Part shown: positions 4,108 to 64,000 of the stretch, in pieces | Position numbering within the stretch: position 1 is the first letter of the stretch | How the letters are laid out: each line of letters begins with the position of its first letter | From: a virus | DNA length: 64,000 nt | Virus record (IMG/VR): IMGVR_UViG_3300045988_138661 | Direction: 5' to 3' (one strand) | Notes under the pieces: generated by a model | What the model was told of the DNA's origin: nothing | The model's database searches: none | Seen by the model: only the letters and a program-made list of their open reading frames with translations | Made by a program: the position numbers and the translations under genes

Positions 4108-4110
4108 ATT

Positions 4111-27792: not shown

Positions 27793-27836
27793 AAAAAGGG
27801 TGAAGCCTATAAGACTTCACCCTTAATTTTATTTTC
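27793..27836 (-). terminator. Intrinsic terminator after the tape measure gene (agggtgaag cctataag acttcaccct plus T-run).
   Basis: 10-bp stem followed by 5 or more T on the minus strand. Confidence 0.6.
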
Positions 27837-36083: not shown

Positions 36084-36209
36084 CCATAGAAATCTCCTTT
36101 CTCTCCAAGTTTTATCTTTATATAAAAATAAAACGGGGATAAGAGCAATTATACTCTTATCCCCATCACTCTATTATTTTTCAAAAAATAATATTATTAA
36201 CTAATTTAA

Positions 36210-46138: not shown

Positions 46139-46168
46139 AATACAAAGTTTAGAAATAATTGCCTTATT

Positions 46169-46681
46169 TATAATAAAAAACTAAGGCTTTCCATTACTAT
46201 CTTTTGCCCACGTAGCATTTAATGTTTTTTCATCAAGCTCCATAGAATGATTATTCCCTTTATCAACTACACGTTTACATTCAGGATACTAACCAGTCCA
46301 CAAATAACCTTCAGTCATTAAATATTCACGTTCGACAACACCATCATCCAAAAATTTCTAGAACCAAACTTTAGCTCCAAGATCAACAAAACCATAAGGG
46401 CGAGTATTATCTCTCATTCTAAATTCGCCATTAGATAATTCAATTATCCTATTATGTTCTTCAAAATCTTCGGTATTTTCGTTAAAAAAGCCAACAATAG
46501 GACTGCCTGGAAGACTATTAGCCATCTCAGTCGCTACATCTTTAGTGATTACGCTTTTATTACGATTAGGCTTATCATCTACATAGCAAACCTTAATTTG
46601 GCATTTAGAAATTAAAGGATTTACAGGAGTTATATTTATAAACTCACAAGGTGTATTTAATTTAATACTTGTATGTTTCAT
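46169..46681 (-). CDS. Head morphogenesis protein, 170 aa, with two TAG.
   Basis: SD ataaggaggatttATG. ORF 46358..46681 continues through TAG to TAA at 46171-46169. Confidence 0.45.
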
Positions 46682-50462: not shown

Positions 50463-51649
50463 TATTTATTCAAACCCTATAAGAACTCATTATCTTGCGC
50501 GGACTCCTATTCTTTAAATTCCTCAAAGTCCGCGTAATCACTATCTTTAATAGTTTTTTCAAGTTCTTCAATACTTAAATCAGCATCATCAACGATATCA
50601 CTTTCCACGTTCTTTGCTTTCTCTTCATCTTCTTTAGCATTTTCGCGTAAAGCCTTTTCTACCATTGTGCTAATATTAGTTTCATCTTCAATAAGAGTGC
50701 GAGTATAACGTTGCATATCTTGAATAGTTAAATCCACTTTATCATGTGGCTATTCAACATAATATCTTTCAATATATCCTTCTTTTTCACACAATTCAAT
50801 TAATTCACCAATTGAATCAACAAATTCACCTGATTCTGCTTTATTTTGAGCAGCGGTAAATTTACCAGACTTCATTAAGCTATCGTATACTTTGCTCATC
50901 TTTTGGAAACCTTCAATATCACCAATATCGATCAATTGATTTGCCTTTAAAGATGTCTTACATATTAATTTTAGCGTATCTTTGTGTCCGGCACCTTGAA
51001 TATCATAAGAAGCCATCATTTCTTCATACAACTATTCAAGCTTAACCCATTCTTCAGGCTTATAAGTTTTGCCCCATTTAAGTCTTAAATAAGTGCGGTC
51101 TTCATCAGTTAAATCTAATTCTTGTTCCACTTCACCACTCTATTGTGCGAAATAATCTTCCGTAGGAGCATTAGGTGGTGGAGCATAAACCGGCTCTTTT
51201 AGTTCTCCTTCTGGAATAGCGATAGAACTTTTTTCAATAGCAGTTGCAATCTATTGAGCGTCATATCCTTGGCGTTTCATAGTTTGCTCTAATTTATTAT
51301 TTGCCATCTACTGTAAAAATTCTGTATCTTTCCAACGATAATCTTTAAACTATTTGAGTTTCATTTTTGACAAATAACGTCCAAGAATTGTCATACCGGT
51401 CATAGACTGCGGATCGCGCCCATATTTTTCCATTAATTTATTCCATTCGTCTGGGACATAAGGAACATCCGCTTCTTGTAAAATCCATAAATAAGTATCT
51501 GGATTCCAATTATCGACGTGCATTGTCATACATTTTTTGCACACAGGGAATTTACCATCATTAGGATATTTTTCTAAATTATTAGATGAATAAAATTCCG
51601 TGCCATTCATTGTGCGGTTACATTTTTCGCAATAATATGTTTCAGCCAT
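50462..51649 (-). CDS. Protein with an N-terminal zinc ribbon (CEKC...CKKC) and an acidic C-terminus, 395 aa, with 6 TAG. Possible terminase small subunit or DNA-binding protein.
   Basis: ORFs 51350..51649, 50750..51031 and 50507..50737 share one frame. All intervening codons were hand-checked (TAG only). TAA at 50464-50462 overlaps the terminase ATG (TAATG). SD aaggagaatatcttatttATG. Confidence 0.45.
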
Positions 51650-52754: not shown

Positions 52755-52946
52755 TTTTTACCTCCAGTCTATGTTTATATTATACTCGAAAAAATTTTTT
52801 TTGTCAAGTTTCATTTAAAAATTTTTCTTTTTATATTTAAAAATTTTTTTAACAAAACAAATAACTTTTGCCCAATCACGCCCTACGATTTGACATTTTT
52901 TATTTTTTATTTTATTATTATTATAAGAAAAAGAAAAGGAGTATTT
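52755..52946. promoter_or_regulatory. Divergent promoter region separating the leftward recoded arm from the rightward standard-code arm.
   Basis: Minus strand: TTGACA-N18-TATAAT then SD. Plus strand: TTGACA-N17-TATTAT then aaaggag and ATG at 52947. Very AT-rich. Confidence 0.5.
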
Positions 52947-53339
52947 ATGGAAATTATTTTTATTGTATTATTGAGTTGTGCGTTAGTAGTATCCCTCCTT
53001 TTTTTATGGTTATACAGAAAAGCCTTTTGGGTATTATACCAAAAAATGGCAAATCAGCAAAAAGAATTAAATAAATGGCCAATCGCGCAATATGAGTGTA
53101 TGTTATTATTAAATATATTTTATAATTATGACTTTGAGGGAAGAGCAGTAGATTTTTCGCGATATGAAACGCAAGGACTAATTGTTTATAATTGTTTTCA
53201 TGAAGCGAAAAATAGTCCAAAAGGAATTACAAATGATGGAATTGTTTCATCATTTTATAAACAAGCATTTGTATATGAATTAGATGATGGAACATTTGAA
53301 TGGGAGGATATTGAAAATGGGTCGGAACCAGCCTTTTGA
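52947..53339 (+). CDS. Small membrane protein, 130 aa (N-terminal TM helix IIFIVLLSCALVVSLLFLWL).
   Basis: ORF track frame. ATG at 52947 has SD aaaggag. Confidence 0.55.
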   Translation: MEIIFIVLLSCALVVSLLFLWLYRKAFWVLYQKMANQQKELNKWPIAQYECMLLLNIFYNYDFEGRAVDFSRYETQGLIVYNCFHEAKNSPKGITNDGIVSSFYKQAFVYELDDGTFEWEDIENGSEPAF

Positions 53340-53712
53340 AGTAAGAGGAATAGATGCGGTAATATTTAGATTAGAACAAGAATATTCTAACGCAACAAGA
53401 GATAAAGATCCTTTTGTAAGAGATTGGAAATTATTTAAAACAATACGTATTGAGAAAAAGGATAATGGGTCAAGAACAATTACTTACAGACCTTTATCAG
53501 ACGCGGAAAAGGCTCAATTAAGCACCAAAGAAGAACAAGAAGAATATCAGTTAAACAAATACAAATATGTATTAGAGCACTTAATGGAAAAATATGATAT
53601 AAATACTATTAATAGATATATTGATAGTTGTAAATATAAAGATAAATTAATTGAATATATTGAGAAAAAATTAAATGCGGAAACCACTCAGCCCTTTGAA
53701 GGCAATTGCTAA
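53317..53712 (+). CDS. Hypothetical protein, 131 aa.
   Basis: ATG 53317 with SD gaggatattgaaaATG, overlapping the previous gene end. Confidence 0.5.
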   Translation: MGRNQPFEVRGIDAVIFRLEQEYSNATRDKDPFVRDWKLFKTIRIEKKDNGSRTITYRPLSDAEKAQLSTKEEQEEYQLNKYKYVLEHLMEKYDINTINRYIDSCKYKDKLIEYIEKKLNAETTQPFEGNC

Positions 53713-53802
53713 AAAGTGTCAGCAGAAAGTCACTTATTCTGTTACTTCTGGATTATACACTCTTATGCAGGGTGAGAAACCTAAAAGAGGTAGAAAAAAG
53801 AA

Positions 53803-53920
53803 ATCATGATTTGAAATTAAAAATTGATTTGTTGTTTTAACCGTATTCTGAAATTGAAAATTGATTTAGATAAATTTAAATTATTCTTCGTGATTTGAAA
53901 TTGAAAATTGATTTAGATTG
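53803..53920. repeat. Three direct repeats of about 25 bp (core GAAATTGAAAATTGATTT), spaced about 42 bp apart. Iteron-like.
   Basis: tgatttgaaattaaaaattgattt / ctgaaattgaaaattgatttagat / tgatttgaaattgaaaattgatttagat, inside a 570-bp non-coding stretch. Confidence 0.6.
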
Positions 53921-54092
53921 CGTTTTGACCACGCAAAAGGAAAAACACAAATAAAAAAAAATTTTTTCCCGAAATACACCCCCGCCCTATAAGGTTCTAA
54001 CTTGTTTATTCTCTGAGAGTATACCAGCCTTACTCTCGCTCTTTTGCGGAACGCAAGACCCCATCCCGCATAAATGCCCCGGTAAACGTTGC

Positions 54093-54135
54093 TCGGCTCG
54101 CTGGCGGTAGTGGCGAGCCGAGTTTTATAAAAATC
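54093..54135 (+). terminator. GC hairpin plus U-tract (ctcggctcgc tggcggtagtg gcgagccgag ttttat); copy E of the GC-hairpin module.
   Basis: 10-bp stem. Followed by TTGCACAAA..ATGCACAAA and a promoter. Confidence 0.5.
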
Positions 54136-54289
54136 AGCAGTTTGCACAAATTTCTCGCCGAAACTTCGTCATAATGCACAAACATCAAAATGCCCGAAAC
54201 TACGCCATCACATTTGGGTAAAATGACTATTGACAATCCAGTAGCCATGTGCTATACTTGTATCATCAAAAAGAAAGAGGTAAATCAAA

Positions 54290-54655
54290 ATGAAGAACAT
54301 TTCCAAAATCATCACCATGGCCATTGCTATCATTCTCTCCGTGTCTTTCTTTGGCCCGTTCCACGACCACACAACCGCGGAAGCCTGTGAGGAAGCGCCC
54401 CAGTCCTACGACCTCTCGGTCATTGAGAATTGGTGCGGTTCAGGCACGGAGCGCGGAAGTATCCGTTTCGTCGGCGCAGAGGTCTATGAGCGCGAGGGCG
54501 ATACACTGACGCTCATTGATGAGCAAGGCAATCTGTGGGACGTGGAAGCACTCAACATTGATGACAACGACTTCTTGCTCTTGTGGATTAACGACAATGA
54601 CACTGACACTGTGGAAGATGATACAATCATTAAGGTATGGAGAGAGGCTTACTAA
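54290..54655 (+). CDS. Secreted small protein, 121 aa, with a signal peptide (MKNISKIITMAIAIILSVSFFGP).
   Basis: ORF track. Promoter tattgacaatccagtagccatgtgctatact. RBS aagaaagaggtaaatcaaaATG. Confidence 0.6.
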   Translation: MKNISKIITMAIAIILSVSFFGPFHDHTTAEACEEAPQSYDLSVIENWCGSGTERGSIRFVGAEVYEREGDTLTLIDEQGNLWDVEALNIDDNDFLLLWINDNDTDTVEDDTIIKVWREAY

Positions 54656-54684
54656 GTCTCTCTCTTTCTTGCGGATCGGCGAAG

Positions 54685-54702
54685 ATTGTTAAAAAATTAA
54701 CA
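54685..54702. promoter_or_regulatory. Perfect palindrome TTGTTAAAAAATTAACAA (operator-like), about 25 nt upstream of a -35 hexamer. Also at 55109-55126, and a variant at 59041-59058.
   Basis: ggcgaagATTGTTAAAAAATTAACAAg and ggcgtagATTGTTAAAAAATTAACAAa are near-identical 27-mers. Confidence 0.5.
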
Positions 54703-54783
54703 AGCAAAGAAGAGTAAAAAACTCTTGACAAATGCGCAATGATGTGCTACAATGTAGATACAATAAGAAAGGGGAATACTCAG

Positions 54784-55074
54784 ATGACTAATAAGAATTT
54801 TTATAATGCTCTCAAAGCAGAAAAGGAACGGTTGATGAACGAAAGCAAGCAGGCATCCCGCGACTGCCAGATTAAGCATGGTGAGATGTCAAAGGCATGG
54901 AACATTGTCAATGCCCTTGAAAGCTTGGGTAAGTTTGGCACGCAGGAACTCAGCAACGCGTATGATAACTATGAGGAAGCCAGCTACGCAAGTATGTTAG
55001 CAGACAACCACTTCGATGACATTGATGAAGCCATTGATAAGATAAATGGATTGATGGGTCTTTACGAAGAATAA
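54784..55074 (+). CDS. Hypothetical protein, 96 aa.
   Basis: Promoter cttgacaaatgcgcaatgatgtgctacaat. RBS aaaggggaatactcagATG. Terminator agggagcagtaatgctccct. Confidence 0.6.
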   Translation: MTNKNFYNALKAEKERLMNESKQASRDCQIKHGEMSKAWNIVNALESLGKFGTQELSNAYDNYEEASYASMLADNHFDDIDEAIDKINGLMGLYEE

Positions 55075-55204
55075 GGGAGCAGTAATGCTCCCTTTCTAAC
55101 GGCGTAGATTGTTAAAAAATTAACAAAGATTTTTCTCAAAAAGGTCTTGACAAATCAGTTAGAATGTGGTATTCTATAATCACAAAGGGAAAGGGGAAAG
55201 AAAA

Positions 55205-55414
55205 ATGATTTATGGCATTGTTTATTATACTAAGGGCGGTCAGGGCTATCTCTTCCAGCAAGCGTTCGAAGAACAGCGCGCTATGGAGATTGCAGGTAAG
55301 ATGAACGACTTACTCGCGACAGGTGCTACGATGTATAATGATAAGTCCTATGGCAAGCTCGACTTGCGGAACGTTGAGTATTTCACAGTTGAACCCAGTA
55401 GCGAAATGTATTAA
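55205..55414 (+). CDS. Hypothetical protein, 69 aa.
   Basis: Promoter cttgacaaatcagttagaatgtggtattctataat. RBS aaaggggaaagaaaaATG. GC hairpin plus T-tract terminator follows. Confidence 0.55.
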   Translation: MIYGIVYYTKGGQGYLFQQAFEEQRAMEIAGKMNDLLATGATMYNDKSYGKLDLRNVEYFTVEPSSEMY

Positions 55415-55599
55415 GGGCGGGAGCGGGCTCCCCGCTCTTTCTCTTGCGCCGTGGGGCGCGTGTAGAGCGTCCCAGCCCGAACTTTATCACAGTAAAGCAT
55501 TAAAGCAAAATTTTTTCCATTTTTTGCCAAAAACCACTTGACATTCCTATCCCGAAATGCTATAATAGTATCATCAAAAGAAAGAAAGAGGTAAATCAA

Positions 55600-55722
55600 A
55601 TGTCTATTCACGATGGTCTTGTTCTTCTCGCTATCTATGTTGGTGTTATCGGCGCGGGCGCGCTCATCGAATACGTGGAGCACCGCGTAAAGAGAGCGGT
55701 TCATCGCAGAAAGAGAAGTTGA
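55600..55722 (+). CDS. Hydrophobic micro-protein, 40 aa (MSIHDGLVLLAIYVGVIGAGALIEYVEHRVKRAVHRRKRS): one TM helix plus a basic tail.
   Basis: Own promoter (cacttgacattcctatcccgaaatgctataat), RBS and terminator (agagaagtt gaaaa aacttctct ttttttt). Confidence 0.4.
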   Translation: MSIHDGLVLLAIYVGVIGAGALIEYVEHRVKRAVHRRKRS

Positions 55723-55776
55723 AAAACTTCTCTTTTTTTATAAAAAACACTTGACAAATCCAACAGCCGGTGCTAT

Positions 55777-55925
55777 ACTATAATTGTCAAGAGGGGAAGA
55801 GATAAGTTACTTCCCAAAGGGTGTGTGGCAAGTAGCCATTTCCTTTGATAAAACGCTTAGTTGGAGCGACCAGACAGGGCGCGCACTGTCCGCAAAAGTA
55901 GAGAATAAAAAAATTCCAACTTCTC
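55777..55925 (+). ncRNA. Candidate non-coding transcript from promoter 55751-55776; begins UGUCAAGAGG and contains hairpins.
   Basis: No credible ORF (track ORF 55784..56023 runs across the next promoter). Stem gggaag/cttccc and gacag-ggcgcgca-ctgtc. Confidence 0.3.
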
Positions 55926-56104
55926 AAAAAAACCTCTTGACAGACCCCTTAGAGTGTGATACAATAAGGATGTCAAGAGGCAGACAGGAGCGAACAACCT
56001 CTCCCCAATGCGTAGTTGGGTGAAGTAAAACAAAATCTCCCTACCGAACAAAAAAGTTCAAAAAACCTCTTGACAAACCCCTTAGAGTGTGATACAATAA
56101 GGGT
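55924..56104 (+). repeat. Tandem duplication of a 44-bp promoter unit (aaaaacctcttgacaNaccccttagagtgtgatacaataagg) at 55924-55967 and 56061-56104.
   Basis: Near-identical copies. The first is followed by AUGUCAAGAGG..., the second by the tRNA-like element. Confidence 0.6.
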
Positions 56105-56110
56105 ACAGAT

Positions 56111-56222
56111 GGCGGTGAGGTAGAACGGTTCTACTTCCACAAAGATGGCTGAGATACAAAAGTGTCGCTCACTTGGAAACGTTCGCTATTGGAAAATGTG
56201 GGTTCAACTCCCACCACCGCCT
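56111..56222 (+). tRNA. tRNA-like element of 113 nt: 7-bp acceptor stem (GGCGGTG/CACCGCC), D-arm (GTAG-AACGGTT-CTAC) and canonical T-arm (GTGGG-TTCAACT-CCCAC). Has an insertion of about 40 nt in the anticodon region, so either an atypical or intron-containing tRNA, or a tRNA-like RNA.
   Basis: Arms identified by hand. Possible anticodon stem 56136-56140 / 56189-56193 enclosing the insert. The promoter places the TSS about 5 nt upstream. Length is atypical and the anticodon is unresolved. Confidence 0.45.
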
Positions 56223-56302
56223 CAAAATTTTTTGAAAAAACACTTGACAAATCCAAAAGTAGATGTTATAATGTAGATACAATAAGAAAGGGGATAAAAA
56301 CC

Positions 56303-56566
56303 ATGACTACTTACAACATTCTCACTATTGGCCCTTCTCGTGAACCGAAGCTCGCGGGCAAGTTCAACGTTGCGGATACTGAAAACTTCCTTGACCGGTT
56401 AGAGGAAACGCTCTACATTCTCTTTGAATTAGAGCCGAAATCCCGCGAATGGAAACGCGAATTTCTCAAACATCTTTTTGCGGAATTCACTTATCACTTT
56501 TGCGAAGATTCCCGCGTTGAAAAGCAAGGCAACAATATTATCGTTTATGAAGAAAATGAGGGCTGA
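56303..56566 (+). CDS. Hypothetical protein, 87 aa (MTTYNILTIGPSREPK...).
   Basis: Promoter cacttgacaaatccaaaagtagatgttataat. RBS aaaggggataaaaaccATG. Terminator gggctgaaaaagccc plus T8. Confidence 0.6.
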   Translation: MTTYNILTIGPSREPKLAGKFNVADTENFLDRLEETLYILFELEPKSREWKREFLKHLFAEFTYHFCEDSRVEKQGNNIIVYEENEG

Positions 56567-56682
56567 AAAAGCCCTCATTTTTTTTCAAACTTTTTTCAAA
56601 AAACTATTGACATTTACTGCCCTAAGTGGTATTATAATATCAGAAAGGGAAAGGAAAATCCCGAACACCAGAAAGGTTAGCT

Positions 56683-56874
56683 ATGGATACTTTCGAAATG
56701 TATTACGAGAAATTCATGAAGATGCGCAAGGCTGACATTATTCGCGAGGGTCAGACTTGGGATATTTGGGCAAACTGCCAAAGCACTGCCGATAGCCTGA
56801 TGAAGTGGACAAAGCCCGTTCTTGCGAGAGTTCTTGCTGGACGCCTGGACCGTTTGGAAAAGCGGGGCTACTAA
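56683..56874 (+). CDS. Hypothetical protein, 63 aa.
   Basis: ORF track. Promoter ctattgacatttactgccctaagtggtattataat. Terminator agcggggctactaagccccgct. Confidence 0.55.
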   Translation: MDTFEMYYEKFMKMRKADIIREGQTWDIWANCQSTADSLMKWTKPVLARVLAGRLDRLEKRGY

Positions 56875-56959
56875 GCCCCGCTTCTTTCTTGAAAAAAGTT
56901 CTTGACAAATCTCGAATCTATGGTATAATAAGAGTATAAAAGGAAAGGGGATAAACAAA

Positions 56960-57199
56960 ATGACTTTGGACATGATTAAAAATGTAATTGGCACGGTAAA
57001 AGGCGCGCTGATGTTCTATGAGGGGAATGGCGTCGAAGTGATAAACGAAAACACTTGCGGTCGCTATCTCAAAGACCGCAAAGGTCGCATGACTTTGAAT
57101 GGTGATGTGTTAGACGCAAGCGAAGAGTGGGTGCTGGGATTGCCGGTCAGCGATTTGAAAGCCAGAGATAACGTTCTCATTATTTATGTTGATGGCTAA
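56960..57199 (+). CDS. Hypothetical protein, 79 aa.
   Basis: ORF track. Promoter cttgacaaatctcgaatctatggtataat. Terminator atctcccc aaaaa tggggagat plus T7. Confidence 0.55.
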   Translation: MTLDMIKNVIGTVKGALMFYEGNGVEVINENTCGRYLKDRKGRMTLNGDVLDASEEWVLGLPVSDLKARDNVLIIYVDG

Positions 57200-57253
57200 A
57201 ATTAAATTTTTTGAATTAAAAATCTCCCCAAAAATGGGGAGATTTTTTTGTAC

Positions 57254-57440
57254 ATTTTATCTATTGACAATCCCAAAACTTCATGGTATAATCGGCCGGC
57301 GCGCGAACGGACCTGGCGCGCCGAGTTTTTGTCAATAGGCGGGTTGCACAAATTTTTGGGGCAAATCTTTGTGCATAATGTCAATAGACAGAATCCCGAA
57401 TTGGTGCTATACTATAATCACAGTAAGGGAAGGAAAACCT
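57254..57440 (+). promoter_or_regulatory. GC-hairpin module copy A: promoter P1 (TTGACA 57254 / TATAAT 57277), GC hairpin 57283-57315 (cggccGGCGCGCgaacggacctgGCGCGCCgag) plus T5, TTGTCAAT, dyad TGCACAAA-N17-TTTGTGCA, then promoter P2 (TAGACA-N17-TATACT).
   Basis: Read directly from the sequence. Comparable modules at 60790-60960 (B), 62828-63010 (C), 59041-59250 (D) and 54093-54280 (E). Confidence 0.5.
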
Positions 57441-57464
57441 ACCAAACCGGAAAGGGATAACAAC

Positions 57465-57773
57465 ATGATTAACATTCGTTCTATTCTCAAACTCGCTGAA
57501 AATGACGGTCTGACCCTCAAACATGGCAAGAAGGTCAATTACAAGTCCGGCTGGCAGGTCGCCACTAATGGCGTTGAATGTAAGACCGCCCGCGAAGCCA
57601 TTAACGCGGTCAAGGAATATGGCGGCAACTGCGGCGTGTGGTTTGCGAACGGCATTTATTATGTTGACAAGTCCAAGAGGGTGCAGACCAAGAAGCAGGC
57701 GCTTGAAATCGGCAAGGCGTGCAACCAAATCAGTGTATATGGCTGGGCGCGCGGCAATCTGGCTTACTGCTAA
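57465..57773 (+). CDS. Hypothetical protein, 102 aa.
   Basis: RBS ggaaagggataacaacATG. ORF track frame. Confidence 0.6.
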   Translation: MINIRSILKLAENDGLTLKHGKKVNYKSGWQVATNGVECKTAREAINAVKEYGGNCGVWFANGIYYVDKSKRVQTKKQALEIGKACNQISVYGWARGNLAYC

Positions 57774-57851
57774 AAAATTAAATAGAGGGCTTGACAAAAC
57801 AAGCCCTCTATGCTATAATAAAGGCACAATAAAGGAAAGGGAGAAAACAAC

Positions 57852-58121
57852 ATGGAAATTAAATATGCTCACGAAATGGCGGCTATCGCTAAGGACATCC
57901 GCACCGCCAAGCGCGCCAAAGATACTGCTACGGCCCGCGCCTATCTTGAAGAAAACCTGATGAAAGATATTGAAGACCACGCGGAAAAAGGCGAGAATTA
58001 TCTGTCTCGCTGTCTCGTTGCCATTGAAGATGAAGCCGTGAAAGAAGCCTTAAAAAATCTTTTGCGGAATTATGGCTATACAACTTCTTATTCAAACGGC
58101 GTTCTCACCGTAAGGTGGTAA
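57852..58121 (+). CDS. Hypothetical protein, 89 aa.
   Basis: ORF track. Promoter with the -35 hexamer inside the palindrome agagggcttgacaaaacaagccctct. Terminator agagggaaaatttttccctct plus T. Confidence 0.6.
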   Translation: MEIKYAHEMAAIAKDIRTAKRAKDTATARAYLEENLMKDIEDHAEKGENYLSRCLVAIEDEAVKEALKNLLRNYGYTTSYSNGVLTVRW

Positions 58122-58225
58122 GGTAAAAGAGGGAAAATTTTTCCCTCTTTTTCTAAAAAACTTCTTGACAAATCCAAAAGCAGATGTTATAATAAAAGCA
58201 CAATAAAGGAAAGGGGAATAAATTA

Positions 58226-58297
58226 ATGGAATGTCCTTATTGCGATGGAAAGTGCGGAACACATGCTCAATGCGTTAAATGCGGAAAAGGGAAATAA
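58226..58297 (+). CDS. Candidate 23-aa Cys-rich micro-protein (MECPYCDGKCGTHAQCVKCGKGK), a zinc-ribbon-like peptide.
   Basis: Strong RBS aaaggaaaggggaataaattaATG. Four CxxC-type Cys pairs. Confidence 0.3.
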   Translation: MECPYCDGKCGTHAQCVKCGKGK

Positions 58298-58299
58298 AA

Positions 58300-58656
58300 A
58301 TGGGAACGGAATTCTTAATTATTGGCGGAATTTTTAGCGCAGTCCTTGCGCTGTTTGTCTGCCTTGTCTGTTGGTGCCGCATGGAAAAGTCTCACCCAAT
58401 AGTCAGATTGTTAGTTGGTATCCTTATTTCGTGCGCCATCGGTTATGGCATGACGGGCGCGTTAGTCGCAGAACATAATGCCGATAGAAAAGCATGGAAC
58501 AACGGCTATTGCTCCATTTGCGGAAATGAAATGGAATTTGTAAATGCTTCTCATGGTCGGCATGGAACAGTTTATTACTATTGGTATTGCGATGAGTGCG
58601 GTCATACGTTAGAGTTAACTTCTAACTTTGCAAAGGGGGAAACAGATAATGAATGA
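58300..58656 (+). CDS. Membrane protein with two TM helices plus a C-terminal zinc ribbon (CSICG...CDECG), 118 aa.
   Basis: RBS ggaaaagggaaataaaaATG. ORF track frame. Confidence 0.55.
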   Translation: MGTEFLIIGGIFSAVLALFVCLVCWCRMEKSHPIVRLLVGILISCAIGYGMTGALVAEHNADRKAWNNGYCSICGNEMEFVNASHGRHGTVYYYWYCDECGHTLELTSNFAKGETDNE

Positions 58657-58855
58657 AAAAACTATCCCACAGGCTTTGAGAGAACAGGCAGACGCCATTG
58701 AAAAGTTAGCTCAAAGAATTGCGAAAGAAAGCAAGGAATTTCCAGACGAGGAAGACCGCAGAGACGGCGGAGAACTTGCGGACGCTTTATTTGCGATTCA
58801 ATCAAAGCTCCGCTATGAGTACTCTTGGATTGCGGAAACCATGTGGGACGTGTAA
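58649..58855 (+). CDS. Hypothetical acidic protein, 68 aa.
   Basis: RBS caaagggggaaacagataATG, overlapping the previous stop. Terminator tcaggcgagat ttaat tatctcgcctga plus T. Confidence 0.5.
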   Translation: MNEKTIPQALREQADAIEKLAQRIAKESKEFPDEEDRRDGGELADALFAIQSKLRYEYSWIAETMWDV

Positions 58856-58934
58856 TTTTCAGGCGAGATTTAATTATCTCGCCTGAAAATTTTTTTCAAA
58901 AAACTATTGACAAACTCACCCCGTTGTGGTATTA

Positions 58935-59036
58935 TAATCATGTCAAGAGGAAGTGGTAAGCCTCTTGAAGTAGTGAACAAATTTCTCATACTATGGTTTG
59001 CGCGGTAGCCGATAATTACCGCGCCCTTTCTATTTC
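58935..59036 (+). ncRNA. Candidate small RNA or leaderless micro-ORF transcript. Starts AUGUCAAGAGG, has a 5-prime hairpin caagagg/cctcttg and a terminator gcgcggta-gccgataat-taccgcgc plus T-run.
   Basis: Promoter ctattgacaaactcaccccgttgtggtattataat immediately upstream. A possible 22-aa leaderless ORF (MSRGSGKPLEVVNKFLILWFAR) ends at TAG. Confidence 0.3.
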
Positions 59037-59258
59037 ATTTTTGTTAAAATTTTAACAATGATTGTTCGGCCGGGCGCGCACGGACCACGCGCCCGGAATT
59101 TCAATTATATCACAGGGCCAGCAATTTGTCAAGCAAAAAGTCGCGAAAATTTGCATAAATTATTTTTCCCAATTTTGTGCGATCCGTCAATAGACAAATC
59201 TCTAAGAGTGTGTTATATTATAATTGTTCCAAGGGAACAGAAAGATGAGGTAAATAAA

Positions 59259-59465
59259 ATGACTAACTACAACATTCACTCTTTTATCAAGACCCAGCTT
59301 CTCCATGCCGAGCAGATGCCCAGCGATGCCGAACTTTTCAAGCATAACGCCTATGGCGCAGTCTCGTGGGAGTTATATCGCACGAATGACCATGCCCTTG
59401 AAGAACAGTGGGCAAATGTATATGCTCCCAAGTTCGACGCCATCATCAGAAATTATCATTTCTGA
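59259..59465 (+). CDS. Hypothetical protein, 68 aa (MTNYNIHSFIK...).
   Basis: RBS gatgaggtaaataaaATG. Promoter tagacaaatctctaagagtgtgttatatt. Confidence 0.55.
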   Translation: MTNYNIHSFIKTQLLHAEQMPSDAELFKHNAYGAVSWELYRTNDHALEEQWANVYAPKFDAIIRNYHF

Positions 59466-59534
59466 TAAAAAGGGCTTGACAAAAGCCCTTTCGCATGATA
59501 TAATACATATACAATCAAGAAAGAGGTAAAACAA

Positions 59535-59873
59535 ATGCTTATCAAAATGTCAAAACACGCCACGCAAGACCGCATTGACCGCCTGCTCTTCATCTACGAT
59601 AATGTAGGAATCGGCGAACCGTATATCGACAGTGTTGAGGACGATGTTCTCTACACTATCACTACAACAGGTATTCTTCTTGTTCGTAGTGCTAAGGACG
59701 GAACACTCATTACAGCCTATATCGCGGATATTGATAAAATCACCGCAATATGGAGAAATAAGCACGGCGAGCGCCCTATGCCTGATAACCTTTACAAGCG
59801 GGTTCTCGCAAACGCGTTCTTTGATAGAATGTGGAATAAGCAAGAAAAGGAGAAAAAGAAAAATGTTCGGTAA
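59535..59873 (+). CDS. Hypothetical protein, 112 aa.
   Basis: ORF track. Promoter with the -35 hexamer inside aaagggcttgacaaaagcccttt. Confidence 0.6.
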   Translation: MLIKMSKHATQDRIDRLLFIYDNVGIGEPYIDSVEDDVLYTITTTGILLVRSAKDGTLITAYIADIDKITAIWRNKHGERPMPDNLYKRVLANAFFDRMWNKQEKEKKKNVR

Positions 59874-60216
59874 GAAAAAGAAGCCTTTCAATCCATATGA
59901 AAAACGCGCGGACGATGCGCTTTATGAAGTATGGGAAACGCGCGACCGCCTTTATGAAAAGACAAGGCAAGTCATTACGCGCGTAGGGGTGATTAACCTT
60001 TACCCCAATGGCGCTGACCGCGAGAAAGCCGTCTCTGACGCCGAAGAAGCGAAGCACGCTTTGCTTGTAGCTATTGGAGCATACGACACCGCGCGCATGG
60101 AATACAATGATTATGTTGAAAAAAACGCGGAAAAGTTTGACAACCATAAAGAAAAATGGACTACCACGAGCCATGAAATTATCGAATGGGCTTACAAATA
60201 CTATTATAAAGGGTGA
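59863..60216 (+). CDS. Hypothetical protein, 117 aa.
   Basis: RBS aaaaggagaaaaagaaaaATG, overlapping the upstream gene end. Confidence 0.55.
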   Translation: MFGKKKKPFNPYEKRADDALYEVWETRDRLYEKTRQVITRVGVINLYPNGADREKAVSDAEEAKHALLVAIGAYDTARMEYNDYVEKNAEKFDNHKEKWTTTSHEIIEWAYKYYYKG

Positions 60217-60221
60217 ATAAA

Positions 60222-60455
60222 ATGAAGATTACTATTAAGAATAATAAACTCGCCCCCTTTGGAGAAATTGCCAAGGGCGTAGTTTTCAAAGACCCGACCG
60301 CCGAAGATTATTACATCAAAATCGCCGCAGAGGTCGATGAAAATACCGGTGATGATGAATGGAATTGTCTCCATTTGGACAATTACGCTCTCGACTGTTT
60401 CGGCCTAAAAGATATGGTTCTCCCCATCTACGATGCGGAACTGATTATTCCCTGA
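60222..60455 (+). CDS. Hypothetical protein, 77 aa.
   Basis: RBS aaagggtgaataaaATG. Hairpin ggcggttgt-accccaaaaa-acaaccgcc follows. Confidence 0.55.
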   Translation: MKITIKNNKLAPFGEIAKGVVFKDPTAEDYYIKIAAEVDENTGDDEWNCLHLDNYALDCFGLKDMVLPIYDAELIIP

Positions 60456-60568
60456 TAAAACCGGACTTTGTCCGCGTTTCTCTCCCCCTTTCCTATGGCT
60501 TTGGCGGTTGTACCCCAAAAAACAACCGCCACCCTTTCCAAAAAATAAATTGAATGGAGATAAAAAAG

Positions 60569-60745
60569 ATGAAGAATGAGAAACTTAGTGAGGTTGTTAA
60601 AACTGTGTGCTTGATGGCACGATACGGCATTCAGAAGGGATATCCCTCGGGCGGGACAGAAGCAAATGACATGATTGAACGTGTCGCGCTTCTTGAAAAC
60701 AAGCTCGTTCCCATTCTCGTCGACCTTGAAGCCGTAGAAAACTAA
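60569..60745 (+). CDS. Hypothetical protein, 58 aa.
   Basis: RBS aatggagataaaaaagATG. Terminator aatcacccaa tttgggtgatt plus T8. Confidence 0.5.
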   Translation: MKNEKLSEVVKTVCLMARYGIQKGYPSGGTEANDMIERVALLENKLVPILVDLEAVEN

Positions 60746-60967
60746 ATGAAAAATCACCCAATTTGGGTGATTTTTTTTGTTTACTTTCACTATTGACAAA
60801 GTTCCTTGAATGTGATAAAATCGTCGGCGCGCGGACGATTGTGGCGCGCCGAGTTTTTTGTCAAGAGGTAAGTTCAACAAATTTTCGCACGAATTTTTGT
60901 GTAAAATGCCAATAGACAAAAATCCTATAATGTGGTAAGATGTATACAACAAATAGAGGGGGCTAAA

Positions 60968-61315
60968 ATGATGGTTGCATGGTATTGGTTAATTCTCGCG
61001 TTTTGCGTGGGTATTGCGTTCGCTACAATCACTGATGAGTGGTATGATTGGGAAAACACTTTAACTGACATTCTTGCATGGATTGCTCTGATTATCGGCT
61101 TCGTTCCTTTGACTTTCTATTGCATATTTCTCAAACTGACGGTTTTCCACCCCACTACGCGAGAGAAGTTTGAGGAAGTCAAAAAGGTTAGCGAAGAAAC
61201 TTGTAAAATCTATCGAGTATGCGGAAACGTGTATTTCTGGATTGACCTTAAAGCAACAAAAATCTATAACAAGGTATTCTTTATTCGAGTAAAGGAAACT
61301 GAAAACAATGGGTGA
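60968..61315 (+). CDS. Small membrane protein, 115 aa.
   Basis: RBS aaatagagggggctaaaATG. Preceded by GC-hairpin module copy B. Confidence 0.55.
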   Translation: MMVAWYWLILAFCVGIAFATITDEWYDWENTLTDILAWIALIIGFVPLTFYCIFLKLTVFHPTTREKFEEVKKVSEETCKIYRVCGNVYFWIDLKATKIYNKVFFIRVKETENNG

Positions 61316-61466
61316 AAGAGTTAATGTTTTATGTTTAATTGAGTGGTTGCGCGCTTGGACGGAAACCTTTAATGACTGCGCTTGTTGTCCTTTGTCCAAC
61401 GAGTGCGACCGCCGGAGCATCAGTTATGAATGTGCTGATGACCTATTAGAAAAATTAAAGGAGTAA
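61308..61466 (+). CDS. Cys-rich 52-aa protein (…FNDCACCPLSNECDRRSISYECADD…).
   Basis: ATG overlaps the upstream stop. RBS-like ggaaactgaaaacaATG. Confidence 0.4.
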   Translation: MGERVNVLCLIEWLRAWTETFNDCACCPLSNECDRRSISYECADDLLEKLKE

Positions 61467-61539
61467 ATTAAAAACTCTCTATTGACATTTTTGTTATAAT
61501 ATGATATTATTATAATAGAAAAAGGAAAGGGTGATAATA

Positions 61540-62013
61540 ATGAATACAATTCTTCTGTTCGCGCTTTGCACGGCGGTGAATGTTATTCTGTCAACTATCA
61601 AAAGCATTTTGACTGTTAAGGGCGGAAAACTTAGCGCGTCTTTCATCAACGCTCTCACTTATGGTTTTTATTCCTATGTGATTGTGCTGACTTCTGCGGA
61701 CGGTATGCCTATTTGGTTAAAAATGGCTATTACTGCCATTTGTAATTTCGTAGGCGTTTACCTTGTCAAGTGGATTGAAGAAAAAGCGCGTAAAGATAAA
61801 TTATGGAAAGTCGAGCTTACCGTACCGACAAGATACACTAATACCATTGACTTTGACTTACATGATGTTCCACATTCTTACATTGAATTGAGCGATAAAC
61901 ATACGCTTTTCAATTTTTACTGCGCGACCCAAAAGGAAAGCGCAAAAGTCAAGGCTATCGCTAATCAGTATGAAGCAAAATATTTTGTTGCGGAAAGCAA
62001 AAATCTTGAATAA
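61540..62013 (+). CDS. Membrane protein, 157 aa (N-terminal 3-4 TM helices plus a soluble C-terminal domain).
   Basis: Promoter ctctattgacatttttgttataat. RBS aaaaggaaagggtgataataATG. Confidence 0.6.
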   Translation: MNTILLFALCTAVNVILSTIKSILTVKGGKLSASFINALTYGFYSYVIVLTSADGMPIWLKMAITAICNFVGVYLVKWIEEKARKDKLWKVELTVPTRYTNTIDFDLHDVPHSYIELSDKHTLFNFYCATQKESAKVKAIANQYEAKYFVAESKNLE

Positions 62014-62077
62014 AGGGCTTGACAAAAGCCTTTTATTCTGCTATACTTAACGTATCAAGTGAAAGGGGAAAATTAAA

Positions 62078-62530
62078 ATGAAAGCTACTGGTATCGTTCG
62101 CAGAATTGATGACCTTGGACGTGTGGTCATTCCGAAAGAGATTCGCCGGACTTTGAAGATCCGCGAGGGCGACCCGCTTGAAATCTTCCTTGGAGAGGAC
62201 AACTGCGTTTGCTTCAAGAGGTATTCAGTGCTTGGTTCGTTGACCGAAGAGGCTCTGCGAACCGCTATTACAATGGCGTCAAATTCCGGTCTACGCCCTA
62301 TCGCAATTTATGATACTACTGTAAAACTGCGGGGCATGGAAAACTTTTCGGCCTATGTCCCGACCCAGTGGGAATTTGAAAGAAAGCCATTTGTTTTCAA
62401 TAATACCTATGGCGTTTATCCGGTTTGCGCGGACGGCGACCTTGTGGGTTATGCGGTTTGCGACCAGCAAGACATGGGGTGTGAAATGGACATGATTGTT
62501 CGCTACCTCAGCATTGTGTCTGAACGTTAA
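62078..62530 (+). CDS. AbrB/SpoVT-family transcriptional regulator, 150 aa (N-terminal swapped-hairpin domain MKATGIVRRIDDLGRVVIPKEIRRTLKIREGDPLEIF).
   Basis: The N-terminus matches the hallmark AbrB/Abh/SpoVT N-domain almost residue for residue. Own promoter and RBS. Confidence 0.75.
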   Translation: MKATGIVRRIDDLGRVVIPKEIRRTLKIREGDPLEIFLGEDNCVCFKRYSVLGSLTEEALRTAITMASNSGLRPIAIYDTTVKLRGMENFSAYVPTQWEFERKPFVFNNTYGVYPVCADGDLVGYAVCDQQDMGCEMDMIVRYLSIVSER

Positions 62531-62606
62531 AAAAATAGCACAAGGGGCTTGACAAAACAAGTCCCTTGTGCTATAATAAAACCATCAAAGGAAAGGGGCA
62601 AATAAA

Positions 62607-62783
62607 ATGGAAATTGAAAAGAAATTCCAGGTTGATTATAGCGGTAAAAATCCTTGGGACCAGTATTACGACAATCGGGTTAATTTTGATTCCGAAGAAA
62701 AAGCCGATGCTTTTATCCAAAAGTTGATGGAAGATGAAAATATCTATCAAATTTTCAAAACCATTACTGCCAGATACAGATAA
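62607..62783 (+). CDS. Hypothetical protein, 58 aa.
   Basis: RBS aaggaaaggggcaaataaaATG. Terminator ggtgaaaattcacc plus T7. Confidence 0.5.
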   Translation: MEIEKKFQVDYSGKNPWDQYYDNRVNFDSEEKADAFIQKLMEDENIYQIFKTITARYR

Positions 62784-63021
62784 AATTTGAGGTGAAAATT
62801 CACCTCATTTTTTTGGTTATTTTGCCTATTGACAAAAATCCAATAGTGTGATAAAATGGCCGGCCGTTTACGTATGCCACGGCCGGAACTTCAATTATAC
62901 CAGAAGCCAGCAAATTTGTCAATCGGCAAAATGCACAAAAATCTAATTAGTTTTTTTCCCAAAATGTGCTTGACAAAATCCAGCAGATGCGCTATAATGT
63001 ATTTAGAAAGAGGTGAAAAAC

Positions 63022-63180
63022 ATGGATAATTTCAAGAAAGCCACTGTAAAAGATTATACTGCTTGGGATTTGAATTGTAGAAACATTTGCCCTCACGATA
63101 AATCTTCTAATAAACTGGAAAAGCGTATCAAGCGCAAGGCTCGCAGAAGTCTTAAACAAAATTTGAAAAAAAAGTATTGA
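63022..63180 (+). CDS. Small basic protein, 52 aa.
   Basis: RBS agaaagaggtgaaaaacATG. The stop lies inside the -35 hexamer of the next promoter. Confidence 0.45.
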   Translation: MDNFKKATVKDYTAWDLNCRNICPHDKSSNKLEKRIKRKARRSLKQNLKKKY

Positions 63181-63237
63181 CAAAATACAGCAAATGCGCT
63201 ATAATGTAAGTACAGTAAAGGAAAGGGGTAAACACCA

Positions 63238-63738
63238 ATGAAAATCACTTACATCAAGTCTCACGTTGTGACCACTCGACGCTCTATCAACTTTGACATG
63301 GACGGCACTATCGCTGACCTCTACGGCGTCAAGGATTGGCTCGCGCTTCTCCGTTCGGAAAATCCCACACCCTATCGGACTGCCGCTCCTATGTGCGATA
63401 TGGCTGAATTGAATGAGGTTTGCGAACTTCTCCGCGCCGAGGGTTGGGAAATCAACATCATCACTTGGCTTTCCAAAGATTCGAGCGAGGAATACAAAAA
63501 CCTCGTGCGTAAAGCAAAGCGTGCGTGGCTTGAAGAACAGGGCTTCCACTATGACCACTTCCACGGCGTCCAGTATGGCGCGACCAAAGCCGACAGCGTG
63601 CGCGACCGCTATGACGTGTCCATCTTGGTTGACGATAATGAAAAGGTTCGGAATGGTTGGCACTTGGGCGCTACCATTGACCCGACCGCAGTAAACATTA
63701 TCGAAAAACTTTCGGAACTTTTGGAGAAAAGGGCTTGA
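63238..63738 (+). CDS. HAD-superfamily 5-prime(3-prime)-deoxyribonucleotidase-like protein (NT5C-type; FDMDGTIAD motif I), 166 aa.
   Basis: DxDGT motif near the N-terminus and a size typical of the NT5C family. Promoter attgacaaaatacagcaaatgcgctataat. Confidence 0.55.
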   Translation: MKITYIKSHVVTTRRSINFDMDGTIADLYGVKDWLALLRSENPTPYRTAAPMCDMAELNEVCELLRAEGWEINIITWLSKDSSEEYKNLVRKAKRAWLEEQGFHYDHFHGVQYGATKADSVRDRYDVSILVDDNEKVRNGWHLGATIDPTAVNIIEKLSELLEKRA

Positions 63739-63792
63739 CAAAGCCCTACTCCAATGGTATAATAAATACATCAAATGAAAGGGGAAAATAAA

Positions 63793-64000
63793 ATGTTTGT
63801 TCTTTTAATTCTGCTGTCTCTCACAATTTCGTTCCTGCTTATCTCTGGTTTAGTTTGGCTTCTCTGTTGGCTTCTCCCTGCCATTGGTATCACCGCAATC
63901 GGCACTTTCACCATCGTGTTCTCGTGGAAGCTGGCACTCGCAATTTGGATTATTCTCCTGCTTCTGAGCACTATCTTCCCGAGCGGTAGTAATAGGGGGT
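63793..64000 (+). CDS. Partial membrane protein (multi-TM; MFVLLILLSLTISFLLISGLVWLL...), running off the window.
   Basis: RBS aaaggggaaaataaaATG. Promoter with the -35 hexamer inside the agggcttgacaaagccct palindrome. Confidence 0.5.
   Translation, partial: MFVLLILLSLTISFLLISGLVWLLCWLLPAIGITAIGTFTIVFSWKLALAIWIILLLLSTIFPSGSNRG

Follow-up and report, generated by a model that had tools for sequence, protein, structure and literature searches.

A GC-rich, promoter-dense gene island beside a TAG-recoded late arm in a siphovirus from IMG/VR

The window analysed here, a stretch of 64,000 nucleotides of viral DNA (IMG/VR record IMGVR_UViG_3300045988_138661), joins two unlike compartments: a structural (late) arm on the minus strand, in which TAG encodes glutamine, and an island of small genes on the plus strand that avoids TAG altogether, is richer in G- and C-ending codons and is densely furnished with promoters of the sigma-70 type. 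Judging from these sequence features, the island is probably an array of early, host-takeover cassettes driven by the host RNA polymerase, the codon usage of which is held away from an AT-rich baseline. It begins at 53,940 and runs past the end of the window to ~70,250, its right end being read via the sequence L007, which prolongs the sequence to the equivalent of 73.7 kb; in total, the island spans 16.3 kb and holds 33 called small genes, 23 of them within the window (Table 1).

Genetic code of the two arms

The late arm uses genetic code 15, with TAG read as glutamine. On its minus strand, open reading frames (ORFs) of at least 100 aa cover 27.3 kb under the standard code and 51.8 kb with read-through of TAG; among the frames so restored are one of 2,752 aa with 80 TAGs and one of 2,582 aa with 26. 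In-frame TAG is present in 25 of the 31 late ORFs, 245 codons altogether, and the ORFs end in TAA (27) or TGA (4). Glutamine is spelled CAA 397 times, TAG 245 times and CAG 54 times in the late genes; moreover, when the large terminases of 20 lineages are aligned, glutamine is by far the commonest partner of TAG (232 of 509 aligned residues), and several columns, including invariant glutamine columns, contain Q or TAG exclusively.

In-frame TAG is, by contrast, absent from all 33 genes called in the island, and likewise from the three that precede it at 52,947-53,809. The 33 stops are TAA (19) and TGA (14), never TAG, the corresponding figures for the 23 genes in the window being 14, 9 and 0. 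A first-pass annotation, made from the letters of the window alone, had already described the two arms as differing in code use and the right-arm genes as free of in-frame TAG, and on both counts it was right; its description of those genes as TAA-terminated applies to 14 of the 23 and fails for the nine that end in TGA. Because the island has TAG in neither role, sense codon or stop, its products are unchanged with or without suppression.

A single embedded gene repeats the association of TAG with a low G+C content at third codon positions (GC3): in the relative L117, at 3724-4623 (~76-77 kb window-equivalent), a 299-aa gene with four TAGs has a GC3 of 0.12, and its neighbours form a TAG-free run on the plus strand with GC3 of 0.3-0.45.

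A sharp and mainly synonymous compositional step

Pooled GC content is 0.302 in 1-52,754, 0.273 in 52,755-53,939 and 0.424 in 53,940-64,000. Sampled per 1 kb, it stays at 0.22-0.42 (mostly 0.25-0.35) until 54 kb and at 0.38-0.46 from there to the end of the window; sampled per 200 nt, it rises from 0.265 (53,800-53,999) to 0.42 (53,900-54,099), such that the step from 0.30 to 0.42 is completed within ~100 nt and is located at ~53,930-53,950. The higher GC of the right arm, previously judged by eye, is thereby upheld as an abrupt rather than a smooth change. It had, however, been placed at 52.8-52.9 kb, where only the strand switch (52,755-52,946) is found, the GC step lying 1.2 kb further rightward; the code/strand boundary and the GC boundary are different places because three low-GC, TAG-free genes separate them.

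The GC gap is mostly synonymous: values for the first, second and third codon positions are 0.41, 0.325 and 0.18 in the late arm, and 0.51, 0.34 and 0.52 in the called island genes. From late arm to island, the share of CAG climbs from 0.12 to 0.71 and that of AAG from 0.20 to 0.57, whereas island GAG reaches just 0.32; both G-ending and C-ending codons are raised, although unequally across amino acids. Relative to local non-coding DNA, which makes up 36% of the island and 9.5% of the late arm, GC3 overshoots in opposite directions: in the island it is 0.52 and the non-coding GC 0.39, in the late arm 0.18 and 0.28, respectively. Additionally, among rare island variants in nine close relatives, G/C to A/T changes outnumber the reverse by 124 to 69, with the proviso that variants were polarised by minor allele, which is noisy in a recombining population. 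The equilibrium GC implied by these variants is ~0.31, as opposed to the present 0.445, and approximates to the composition of the late arm; therefore, the island is either held above its mutational baseline or decaying towards it.

Within the late arm, GC3 is highest (~0.30) in three TAG-free genes of the minus strand, namely, 38085-39068, 43033-44139 (the YonB-like capsid gene) and 44157-45074, whereas the other three of the six TAG-free late genes have values of just 0.12-0.19. The higher GC3 of the former fits a combination of TAG avoidance and a milder AT bias in the most highly expressed genes.

Promoters, leaders and terminators of the island

A consensus scan found 60 promoter-like sites in 52.5-64 kb, compared with 24 +/- 4.7 in shuffled sequence, and 100 in 33-52.5 kb, compared with 93 +/- 9. 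Sites with at least 11 of 12 matches number 34 on the plus strand of the 16.3-kb island, 31 of them with a TG extension, as against six, none with a TG extension, on the coding strand of the 52.8-kb late arm. After each of the 26 promoters of the island that lie in the window, there is a 5' untranslated region (UTR) of ~30 nt with the common pattern ..ACAATAAAGGAAAGGGGA..ATG and a Shine-Dalgarno sequence, either AAAGGGGA or AAGAGGT. Some genes are grouped in operons of two to three under one promoter, and a terminator-like hairpin stands 3' of about half of the genes. The -35 hexamer is, in six instances (four in the window), itself the loop of an upstream hairpin, and junctions at which a terminator is followed by a promoter are numerous besides these. 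Thus, of the promoter, conserved leader and terminator that the first-pass annotation had assigned to every right-arm gene, the promoters occur far above chance (a few genes sharing one in operons) and the leader recurs in the ~30-nt UTRs, but the terminator can be granted to only about half of the genes.

A covarying hairpin and its promoter modules

Per kb, the island has 1.9 runs of at least eight G/C, as against 0.17 in the late arm. Frequent GGCGCGCC-type motifs had been remarked on previously; this is accurate for G/C runs as a class, although GGCGCGCC itself occurs literally only twice. These motifs are the stems of a recurrent hairpin, at least nine copies of which are present in the island, five within the window; its core has a G+C-rich stem of 8-10 bp and a loop of 9-11 nt. 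A covariance model built on nine copies, with the alignment anchored on the stem, identified, in 51 sources, 98 matches, 83 of them distinct; apart from one weak match on the reverse strand, every match is on the island side and shares the island orientation, with no match in the late arms and none in Enterococcus phage H1, a cultured relative. Pairing is preserved in 98.9% of the cells, with compensatory changes in seven of the eight pairs, and the covariation score is 0.53, compared with 0.15 in shuffled alignments and at most 0.07 when the partner strand is slid.

The hairpin is set between promoters in a regular manner. In the window genome, a consensus promoter, P1, ends 2-4 nt 5' of the stem, and in four copies a perfect antisense promoter lies 7-8 nt from the other side of the stem, such that the predicted start sites of the two are ~23 nt apart. 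The antisense promoters, at 59104-59132 and 62894-62922 on the minus strand and at the L007-equivalent positions 64,569 and 66,885, have the TG-extended consensus and fire into the hairpin; furthermore, the P1 -10 box and the U-tract of the antisense terminator are reverse complements of each other. Family-wide, among 83 hairpin copies, P1 accompanies 29, a T-run 41 and an antisense promoter 17. The constant parts of the module are the hairpin, ~45 nt with lineage-specific repeats (TTGCACAAA/TTTGTGCA in the window genome) and a second promoter, P2, with a conserved CCC in its spacer. By its arrangement, the module would combine a terminator or insulator, an operator and a regulated promoter, and would split the island into constitutive cassettes and regulated blocks. 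It may represent an undescribed class of phage regulatory or insulator element, and possibly also serves as a recombination handle for cassette exchange.

Four other identities were considered for the hairpin and rejected by reasoning: a CRISPR-repeat-like RNA anti-CRISPR, since the loops are 9-11 nt and the flanking motif is misoriented for a type I-C repeat; an integron attC site, since the conserved flanks are missing and ~9 elements would have to serve ~35 cassettes; an N4-type hairpin promoter, for which the stem and loop geometry is wrong; and a type I toxin-antitoxin pair, there being no peptide ORF.

Recurrence across the family and turnover of cassettes

A terminase search of IMG/VR identified 220 relatives, on contigs mostly of 100-200 kb, and this large family of gut phages includes both recoded and standard-code members; clustering at 90% terminase identity gave 19 lineages, 14 recoded and five standard-code. 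Among these relatives, a structural arm is repeatedly paired with a promoter-dense island of higher GC; co-occurrence of the two arms in related genomes was a check proposed in the first-pass annotation. In 18 of the 19 lineages, GC3 is higher in the island than in the late arm by at least 0.08. The mean gap is 0.20 in recoded lineages (n = 14) and 0.115 in standard-code lineages (n = 5; Mann-Whitney p = 0.005), and it correlates with TAG density (Spearman 0.65, p = 0.0025), with phylogeny handled by the 90%-identity clustering alone. For the relation of TAG to GC3 gene by gene, curated gene lists were preferred to automatic greedy ORF calls, which give long antisense ORFs in the island once TAG is read through. 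Homologues of island genes follow the genome in which they reside, with GC3 values of 0.31 to 0.73; an example is the HAD-like gene, at 0.31 in a standard-code lineage and at 0.73 in L056. Together, the recurrence of the GC3 excess and the genome-specific GC3 of homologues argue against recent import and for a composition that is set and maintained in place.

The content of the island is, nevertheless, unstable. Relatives with late arms that are 95-96% identical lose colinearity at 53.87-54.0 kb or at 55.6 kb; several do so at the 30-nt direct repeats that border the GC step on its low-GC side. Beyond these points, shared blocks of 0.15-2.1 kb with 70-96% identity lie between indels and replacements. 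Promoter windows, which occupy 17% of the island, contain 19 of the 45 breakpoints (42%), and the median distance from breakpoint to promoter is 8 nt, compared with 77 nt at random (P < 2e-4). The island is, therefore, a recombining mosaic of cassettes with its breakpoints on promoters; the mosaic origin suggested previously is correct in this sense, but not in that of a recent foreign import, given the excess in 18 of 19 lineages and the resident GC3 of the genes.

Of 18 close-relative contigs, nine (including those of L014, L016, L023, L026, L027 and L036; also L121) end inside the island or at one of its two boundaries. Such clustering is in keeping with variability between strains, or else with a repeat of twofold coverage, for instance a terminal redundancy.

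Identity of the phage and its relatives

The window is part of a ~190-kb siphovirus with an SPbeta-like structural module: Yon-type structural proteins (YonB, YonD_N and YonG_N) surround the large terminase, as expected of such a module, and the terminase is 35% identical to the product of a 'putative protein YonF' gene of Brevibacillus phage Sundance. By terminase, the nearest named relatives, at 45-47% identity, are Enterococcus phages H1, VRE9_4, EF1 and EF5, Geobacillus virus E3 and Phass-1, with H1 and EF1 the nearest in culture; a megablast search of 52-64 kb against GenBank phages gave no match. Phage H1 likewise carries its structural arm on one strand and, divergent from it, an 11-kb array of ~23 small genes with 17 consensus promoters, which ends with HAD and exonuclease genes, HAD-like and exonuclease-like genes being found in the island too. 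The annotated genes of H1 are intact under the standard code, and the GC hairpin is lacking, as noted above.

Host inference from GTDB bins was tried and not used, as the phage-sized contigs are in inconsistent metagenome-assembled genomes (MAGs). Family contigs in the series L093-L114 are binned as Mollicutes, Treponema, Bacteroidales, Gastranaerophilales and others, and one 'Mollicutes' MAG contains two family phages; these placements are binning artefacts and could mislead host assignment.

Proposed role of the island and alternative explanations

We propose that, immediately on infection, unmodified host RNA polymerase and ribosomes would express the ~35 cassettes of the island, each with a near-consensus sigma-70 promoter (extended -10), a short leader bearing a Shine-Dalgarno sequence, one to three small orphan genes or a small RNA and, often, a terminator. 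The products, mostly orphan proteins, together with the small RNAs, would then disarm or take over the host. The late arm is headed by a host-type consensus promoter directly 5' of the recoded operon (Table 1), and, therefore, late transcription may need no phage factor, leaving TAG as the timing block: because of its 245 TAG codons, the late arm would stay untranslatable until suppression is established. The late genes would lie near or below the AT-rich mutational equilibrium (GC3 0.18), and the island genes would be held far above it (GC3 0.52), the likeliest cause being selection for codons matched to the host tRNA pool before the phage remodels translation. Turnover of the island would proceed by recombination at the repeated promoter and terminator elements. 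In a broader formulation, the change of code would be one half of a split into two translational dialects, one host-matched, GC3-rich and TAG-free, the other phage-specific, GC3-poor and TAG-containing, and the split would deepen with recoding, as the scaling of the GC3 gap with TAG density across lineages suggests. Taken jointly with the hairpin module as a new class of regulatory element, this formulation is tentative, and we regard it as rather doubtful that both will hold.

For the GC part of the observations, the main rival is GC-biased gene conversion, whereby the recombination-prone island would have its coding and non-coding GC lifted for reasons unrelated to translation. It would account for the raised GC of non-coding island DNA, and agrees with a recombination mosaic that has its breakpoints at repeats; the AT-biased rare variants set against a GC-rich standing composition are predicted by conversion and by selection equally. 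Conversion does not explain, however, why third positions depart from the local non-coding background upward in one compartment and downward in the other, nor why the preference for G-ending codons varies by amino acid (CAG 0.71, AAG 0.57, GAG 0.32), and the promoter-dense array of H1, which would count against conversion if it recombines comparably, has no GC excess; overall, we consider it unlikely. Recent import of the island, or of most of its cassettes, from a phage or host donor of higher GC, with insufficient time to drift down, would be in keeping with a step of only ~100 nt, with island blocks that are 72-93% identical between phages sharing 95-96% identical late arms, and with a variant spectrum that implies decay to a GC of ~0.31. 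Yet the GC3 excess spans 18 of 19 lineages with terminases 64-99% identical to the query, homologues of the island genes reside family-wide with lineage-specific GC3 (the best 120 of the AbrB-like protein being 76-98% identical to the query), the island proteins have no relatives outside the phage group in Pfam or PHROGs, and the promoters, leaders and hairpin are uniform along the island and specific to the family, all of which makes import very improbable.

The abruptness of the step is also the sole support for an assembly chimera of two unrelated genomes near 52.8-53.9 kb, in line with the mis-assembly near 52.8-52.9 kb that had been suspected. The window lies within ENA ERZ28595197 scaffold_23 (190,948 bp), Logan ERR414507_18 (82.9 kb) and ENA ERZ1314561 NODE_1625 both contain the identical junction, IMG/VR contigs and the GTDB contig CAMELE010000001.1 are colinear across 48.0-55.6 kb or beyond with 95-97% identity, and the same synteny is seen in the cultured phage H1; as independent assemblies from different samples span the junction, a chimera is excluded for practical purposes. 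A different matter is whether a long terminal repeat, or the DNA injected first, makes up or contains the island, in the manner of the SPO1 redundancy or the T5 pre-early region; its composition and the density of its signals would then reflect this physical status, with which an early function would be compatible. Such a repeat would explain why L018 ends at the equivalent of 53.89 kb and L019 at that of 53.97 kb (that is, within ~100 nt of the 30-nt repeats), why L014, L016 and L023 end 18.6-19.6 kb from the terminase start, near the right boundary of the island, and why L121 ends at the equivalent of ~70.17 kb; direct repeats do mark the left boundary, and SPO1 has its host-takeover module in a 12.4-kb terminal region (PMC6873191). 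Conversely, the island is internal to the 190,948-bp scaffold, 38-54 kb from one end, and its variability from strain to strain would be just as likely to break contigs. A terminal location would conflict with none of the observations, but seems improbable to us. The cassettes could, finally, be morons, accessory genes expressed from a prophage during lysogeny rather than an early lytic module. SPbeta is temperate, a promoter and terminator for each gene would be moron-like, and one product has antitoxin matches among the PHROGs; however, a lysogen would carry an unusual burden with ~35 strong constitutive promoters within 16 kb, neither an integrase nor a repressor module was seen over the ~94 kb examined, and the matches in genome collections are all free, phage-sized contigs, none of them chromosomal insertions. 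We judge this explanation highly improbable.

A number of observations weigh against the early, host-matched cassette array that we favour. No suppressor tRNA with anticodon CUA was detected by ARAGORN in the window, in L007, L117 and L123 or in 45 related loci (~94 kb), and no tRNA was found along the IMG/VR contigs that were walked, with exact and degenerate DNA patterns, to the equivalent of ~92 kb. The higher GC of non-coding DNA in the island is not predicted by codon selection alone. In H1, with the same architecture, GC3 is 0.225 for early and 0.176 for late genes, almost without GC excess, and the recoded lineage L076 has no step within the 6 kb sampled. The reservations attached above to the GC3-TAG correlation and to the polarity of the rare variants belong here as well. 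The MAG bins point mostly to Bacillota, yet are unreliable for phage contigs, and 'host-like' codon usage is an assumption. The early host-takeover role already suggested in the first-pass annotation does fit the promoters, the Shine-Dalgarno sequences, the absence of TAG, the small orphan genes and the layout of H1, but the early timing is something that we infer from promoter type and by analogy. The analysis demonstrates the anatomy, the code, the composition, the family-wide conservation and the mosaic of cassettes; what the genes do, be it host takeover or anti-defence, and why their GC3 is in excess are likewise presumptive.

Further features of the window and its surroundings

The positions of the features referred to above, and of neighbouring genes, are collected in Table 1. 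To the right of the island, beyond ~70,250, low-GC, TAG-containing genes on the minus strand are followed by a fresh run on the plus strand; a Pfam search of the larger ORFs in this direction matched only a metallophosphatase and DUF5052. About 1 kb past the right end, in and beside a TAG-containing gene of the minus strand, L007 has six to seven palindromes of the form TTCGGAAC-N5-GTTCCGAA (18110-18356; 71,347-71,593 window-equivalent) that resemble an operator or iteron array. At the other extreme, the late arm has a 1-kb non-coding gap at 935-1941 with a GC of 0.22 and two plus-strand promoters, each matching 11 of 12, at 1075 and 1097. A YonO-type single-subunit RNA polymerase was not noticed beside the late operon, although no dedicated search for one was made.

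Table 1. Positions of the principal features of the window (-35, start of the -35 hexamer)
Feature	Position	Strand	Remarks
Late structural arm	1-52754	-	Code 15, GC3 0.18
Tape measure	27,829-36,087	-	2,752-aa ORF; assigned by size and coiled-coil-like composition
YonB-like capsid gene	43,033-44,139	-	Pfam YonB, 368 aa
YonD_N protein	45,092-46,681	-	Pfam YonD_N, 529 aa
Large terminase	48,723-50,462	-	
YonG_N protein	50,462-51,649	-	Pfam YonG_N, 395 aa
Strand-switch region	52755-52946		AT-rich, ~190 nt, divergent sigma-70-type promoters
Late-operon head promoter	52,779-52,807	-	TTGACA-17-TATAAT, 12/12 matches
Low-GC operon promoter	52,890-52,918	+	11/12 matches
Three low-GC, TAG-free genes (130, 131, 44 aa)	52947-53809	+	GC3 0.21-0.33
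Three 30-nt direct repeats	53805-53918	+	TGATTTGAAATTGAAAATTGATTTAGAT; on low-GC edge of GC step
High-GC island, part in window	53940-64000	+	23 called small genes, short unannotated ORFs, small RNA genes
GC hairpin, copy 1	54094-54120	+	Stem CGGCTCGC/GCGAGCCG, then T-run
26 sigma-70 promoters	54230-63763	+	TTGACA-17-TATAAT, mostly TG-extended
-35, promoters 1-13	54230, 54725, 55147, 55538, 55751, 55937, 56070, 56244, 56607, 56902, 57264, 57385, 57791	+	
-35, promoters 14-26	58165, 58907, 59191, 59476, 60793, 60913, 61482, 62019, 62549, 62829, 62970, 63177, 63735	+	
Predicted non-coding transcripts	55780-55935, 55966-56065, 58936-59030	+	Own promoters; first two start GTCAAGAGG and are conserved in close relatives
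tRNA-like RNA gene	56111-56222	+	Rfam tRNA model 37 bits; fold z-score -3.0; promoter 56070-56098
Module, type A	57264-57413	+	P1, hairpin 57,297-57,323 (GGCGCGCC), T-run, TTGCACAAA..TTTGTGCA palindrome, P2 (TAGACA)
Terminator/promoter fusion	57782-57811	+	TTGACA in loop of 9-bp hairpin; PeSL-like composite
Further terminator/promoter fusions	59,469-59,491; 62,012-62,033; 63,730-63,747	+	
Module, type B	59070-59219	+	Hairpin 59,070-59,096, antisense promoter 59,104-59,132 (-), operator-like repeat, P2 59,191-59,219
Module, type A	60793-60941	+	P1, hairpin 60,825-60,851 (GGCGCGCC), T-run, operator-like region, P2
AbrB/SpoVT-type DNA-binding protein	62078-62530	+	150 aa; Pfam PF04014, E = 5e-10
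Module, type B	62829-62998	+	P1, hairpin 62,860-62,886 (GGCCGGCC), antisense promoter 62,894-62,922 (-), promoter 62,970-62,998
HAD-type phosphatase/5'-nucleotidase-like protein	63238-63738	+	166 aa

Recognisable families (Pfam or a named PHROG function) were found for three of the 37 island proteins scanned, namely, AbrB/MazE-type, HAD-type and exonuclease-like. The AbrB-like protein is the product of the best-conserved island gene, many of its best 120 homologues being on contigs of 150-197 kb, and is a candidate regulator of the operator-bearing P2 promoters. The PHROG matches of the product labelled antitoxin carry the category 'moron, auxiliary metabolic gene and host takeover', but, as regards homology to SPO1 gp37-gp60, none of the 37 proteins has a PHROG or Pfam match to a host-takeover protein of described function. 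Side observations among the coding genes include a 23-aa micro-ORF at 58226-58297 on the plus strand (MECPYCDGKCGTHAQCVKCGKGK), with two CxxC pairs and its own consensus promoter and Shine-Dalgarno sequence, directly 5' of a 118-aa gene that likewise has Cys pairs. Additionally, two paralogous genes of 124 and 125 aa (MATSTTKKLTKRDRFEALLKMSEVQA...), each with its own promoter, lie at 11825-12199 and 14176-14553 of L007 (65,062-65,436 and 67,413-67,790 window-equivalent) and have the highest GC3 of the island, 0.66-0.70.

At least six non-coding transcripts are predicted, including those near 11425, 13745 and 13870 of L007; all have their own promoters, they open with GTCAAGAGG or GTCAGGAGG a few nt past the -10 box, and several form a hairpin at the 5' end. 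Two of the promoters, at 55937 and 56070, are near-duplicates, and the latter precedes a tRNA-like RNA gene. This RNA has canonical acceptor, D and T arms, and, in place of the anticodon arm, a rod of ~55 nt that lacks an anticodon loop. It was considered as the amber suppressor but cannot fill that role, since a 7-nt anticodon loop with U33 and CUA is not obtained in any register and the rod holds the CUA in base pairs. ARAGORN does not detect the gene, which is rare, being carried by L098 and the IMG/VR contig L116 only; apart from the tRNA model, Rfam searches at permissive E-values gave only chance-level matches.

Relation to known systems and significance

[quoted passage not shown] The island resembles it as a cluster of small genes for orphan products, under strong host-type promoters and ribosome-binding sites, in a large phage, the host of SPO1 belonging to the Bacillota. 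SPO1 is, however, a myovirus with the standard code, no protein homology to the island was detected, and the GC3 split and hairpin-operator modules are features of the island that have not been described for SPO1. In the hyperplastic regions of T4-type phages, promoter-early stem-loop (PeSL) elements flank orphan genes, and relatives differ by cassettes inserted, deleted or replaced, with breaks in these elements (PMC2839356, PMC4122927). The island, likewise hyperplastic, has near-consensus TTGACA-N17-TATAAT joined to stem-loops and breakpoints within the elements, but in another phage lineage and host phylum, and with no element sequence in common; unlike PeSL, the island adds a longer hairpin/operator/promoter module, and its composition differs from that of the remaining genome.

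For recoded phages, early genes in the standard code and late genes that are recoded have been reported, and TAG has been proposed to control the translation of late genes (10.1101/2021.08.26.457843). The code-15 gut phages (crAss-like, Lak and the 'gemstone' clades) share with the window phage structural genes in which TAG is glutamine and a block compatible with the standard code (10.1101/2021.08.26.457843; PMC9523058), and they have close standard-code relatives, as does the window phage within its family. In that literature, GC is treated as a genome-wide precursor of recoding, whereas the window phage splits GC3 by 0.34 internally; a within-genome split of this size that scales with TAG density was not found described in the literature searched. 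A passage of PMC12482277 (citing PMC5683454) has it that, in tRNA-encoding phages such as T4 and Shigella phage Sf14, late structural genes, which are adapted to a phage-supplied translation pool, use codons unlike those of early genes. In the window phage, the effect is much larger, and is accompanied by a change of code and a sharp physical boundary. In outline, then, the contrast of early and late genes, code-15 recoding, host-takeover arrays and PeSL-like shuffling are known. Not found in the literature searched were a synonymous split of such magnitude and abruptness, the way in which it scales with recoding within a family, and the covarying hairpin module of the island.

In practical terms, assemblies break because the GC step is sharp and the island variable, and binning can be misled by the same features, as the MAGs labelled Mollicutes, Treponema and Bacteroidales illustrate. 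The turnover of cassettes extends PeSL-like shuffling from T4-type phages to a siphovirus lineage with Bacillota-infecting relatives, and the ~35 orphan genes under strong promoters that turn over quickly between near-identical phages show the profile to be expected of host takeover and anti-defence, for which they are a candidate source. The family provides a concrete example of a genome partitioned around a mid-infection change of code, with genes indifferent to suppression on one side and genes dependent on it on the other, and the tie between recoding and codon usage joins two problems that are usually separate, namely, the evolution of recoding and the codon difference between early and late genes. 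If composition reflects the time of expression, GC3 and TAG content could be used to assign genes of uncultured recoded phages to a temporal class. Moreover, should the two-dialect reading be true, recoded phages would replace or remodel the whole decoding environment of the cell, and not one stop codon.

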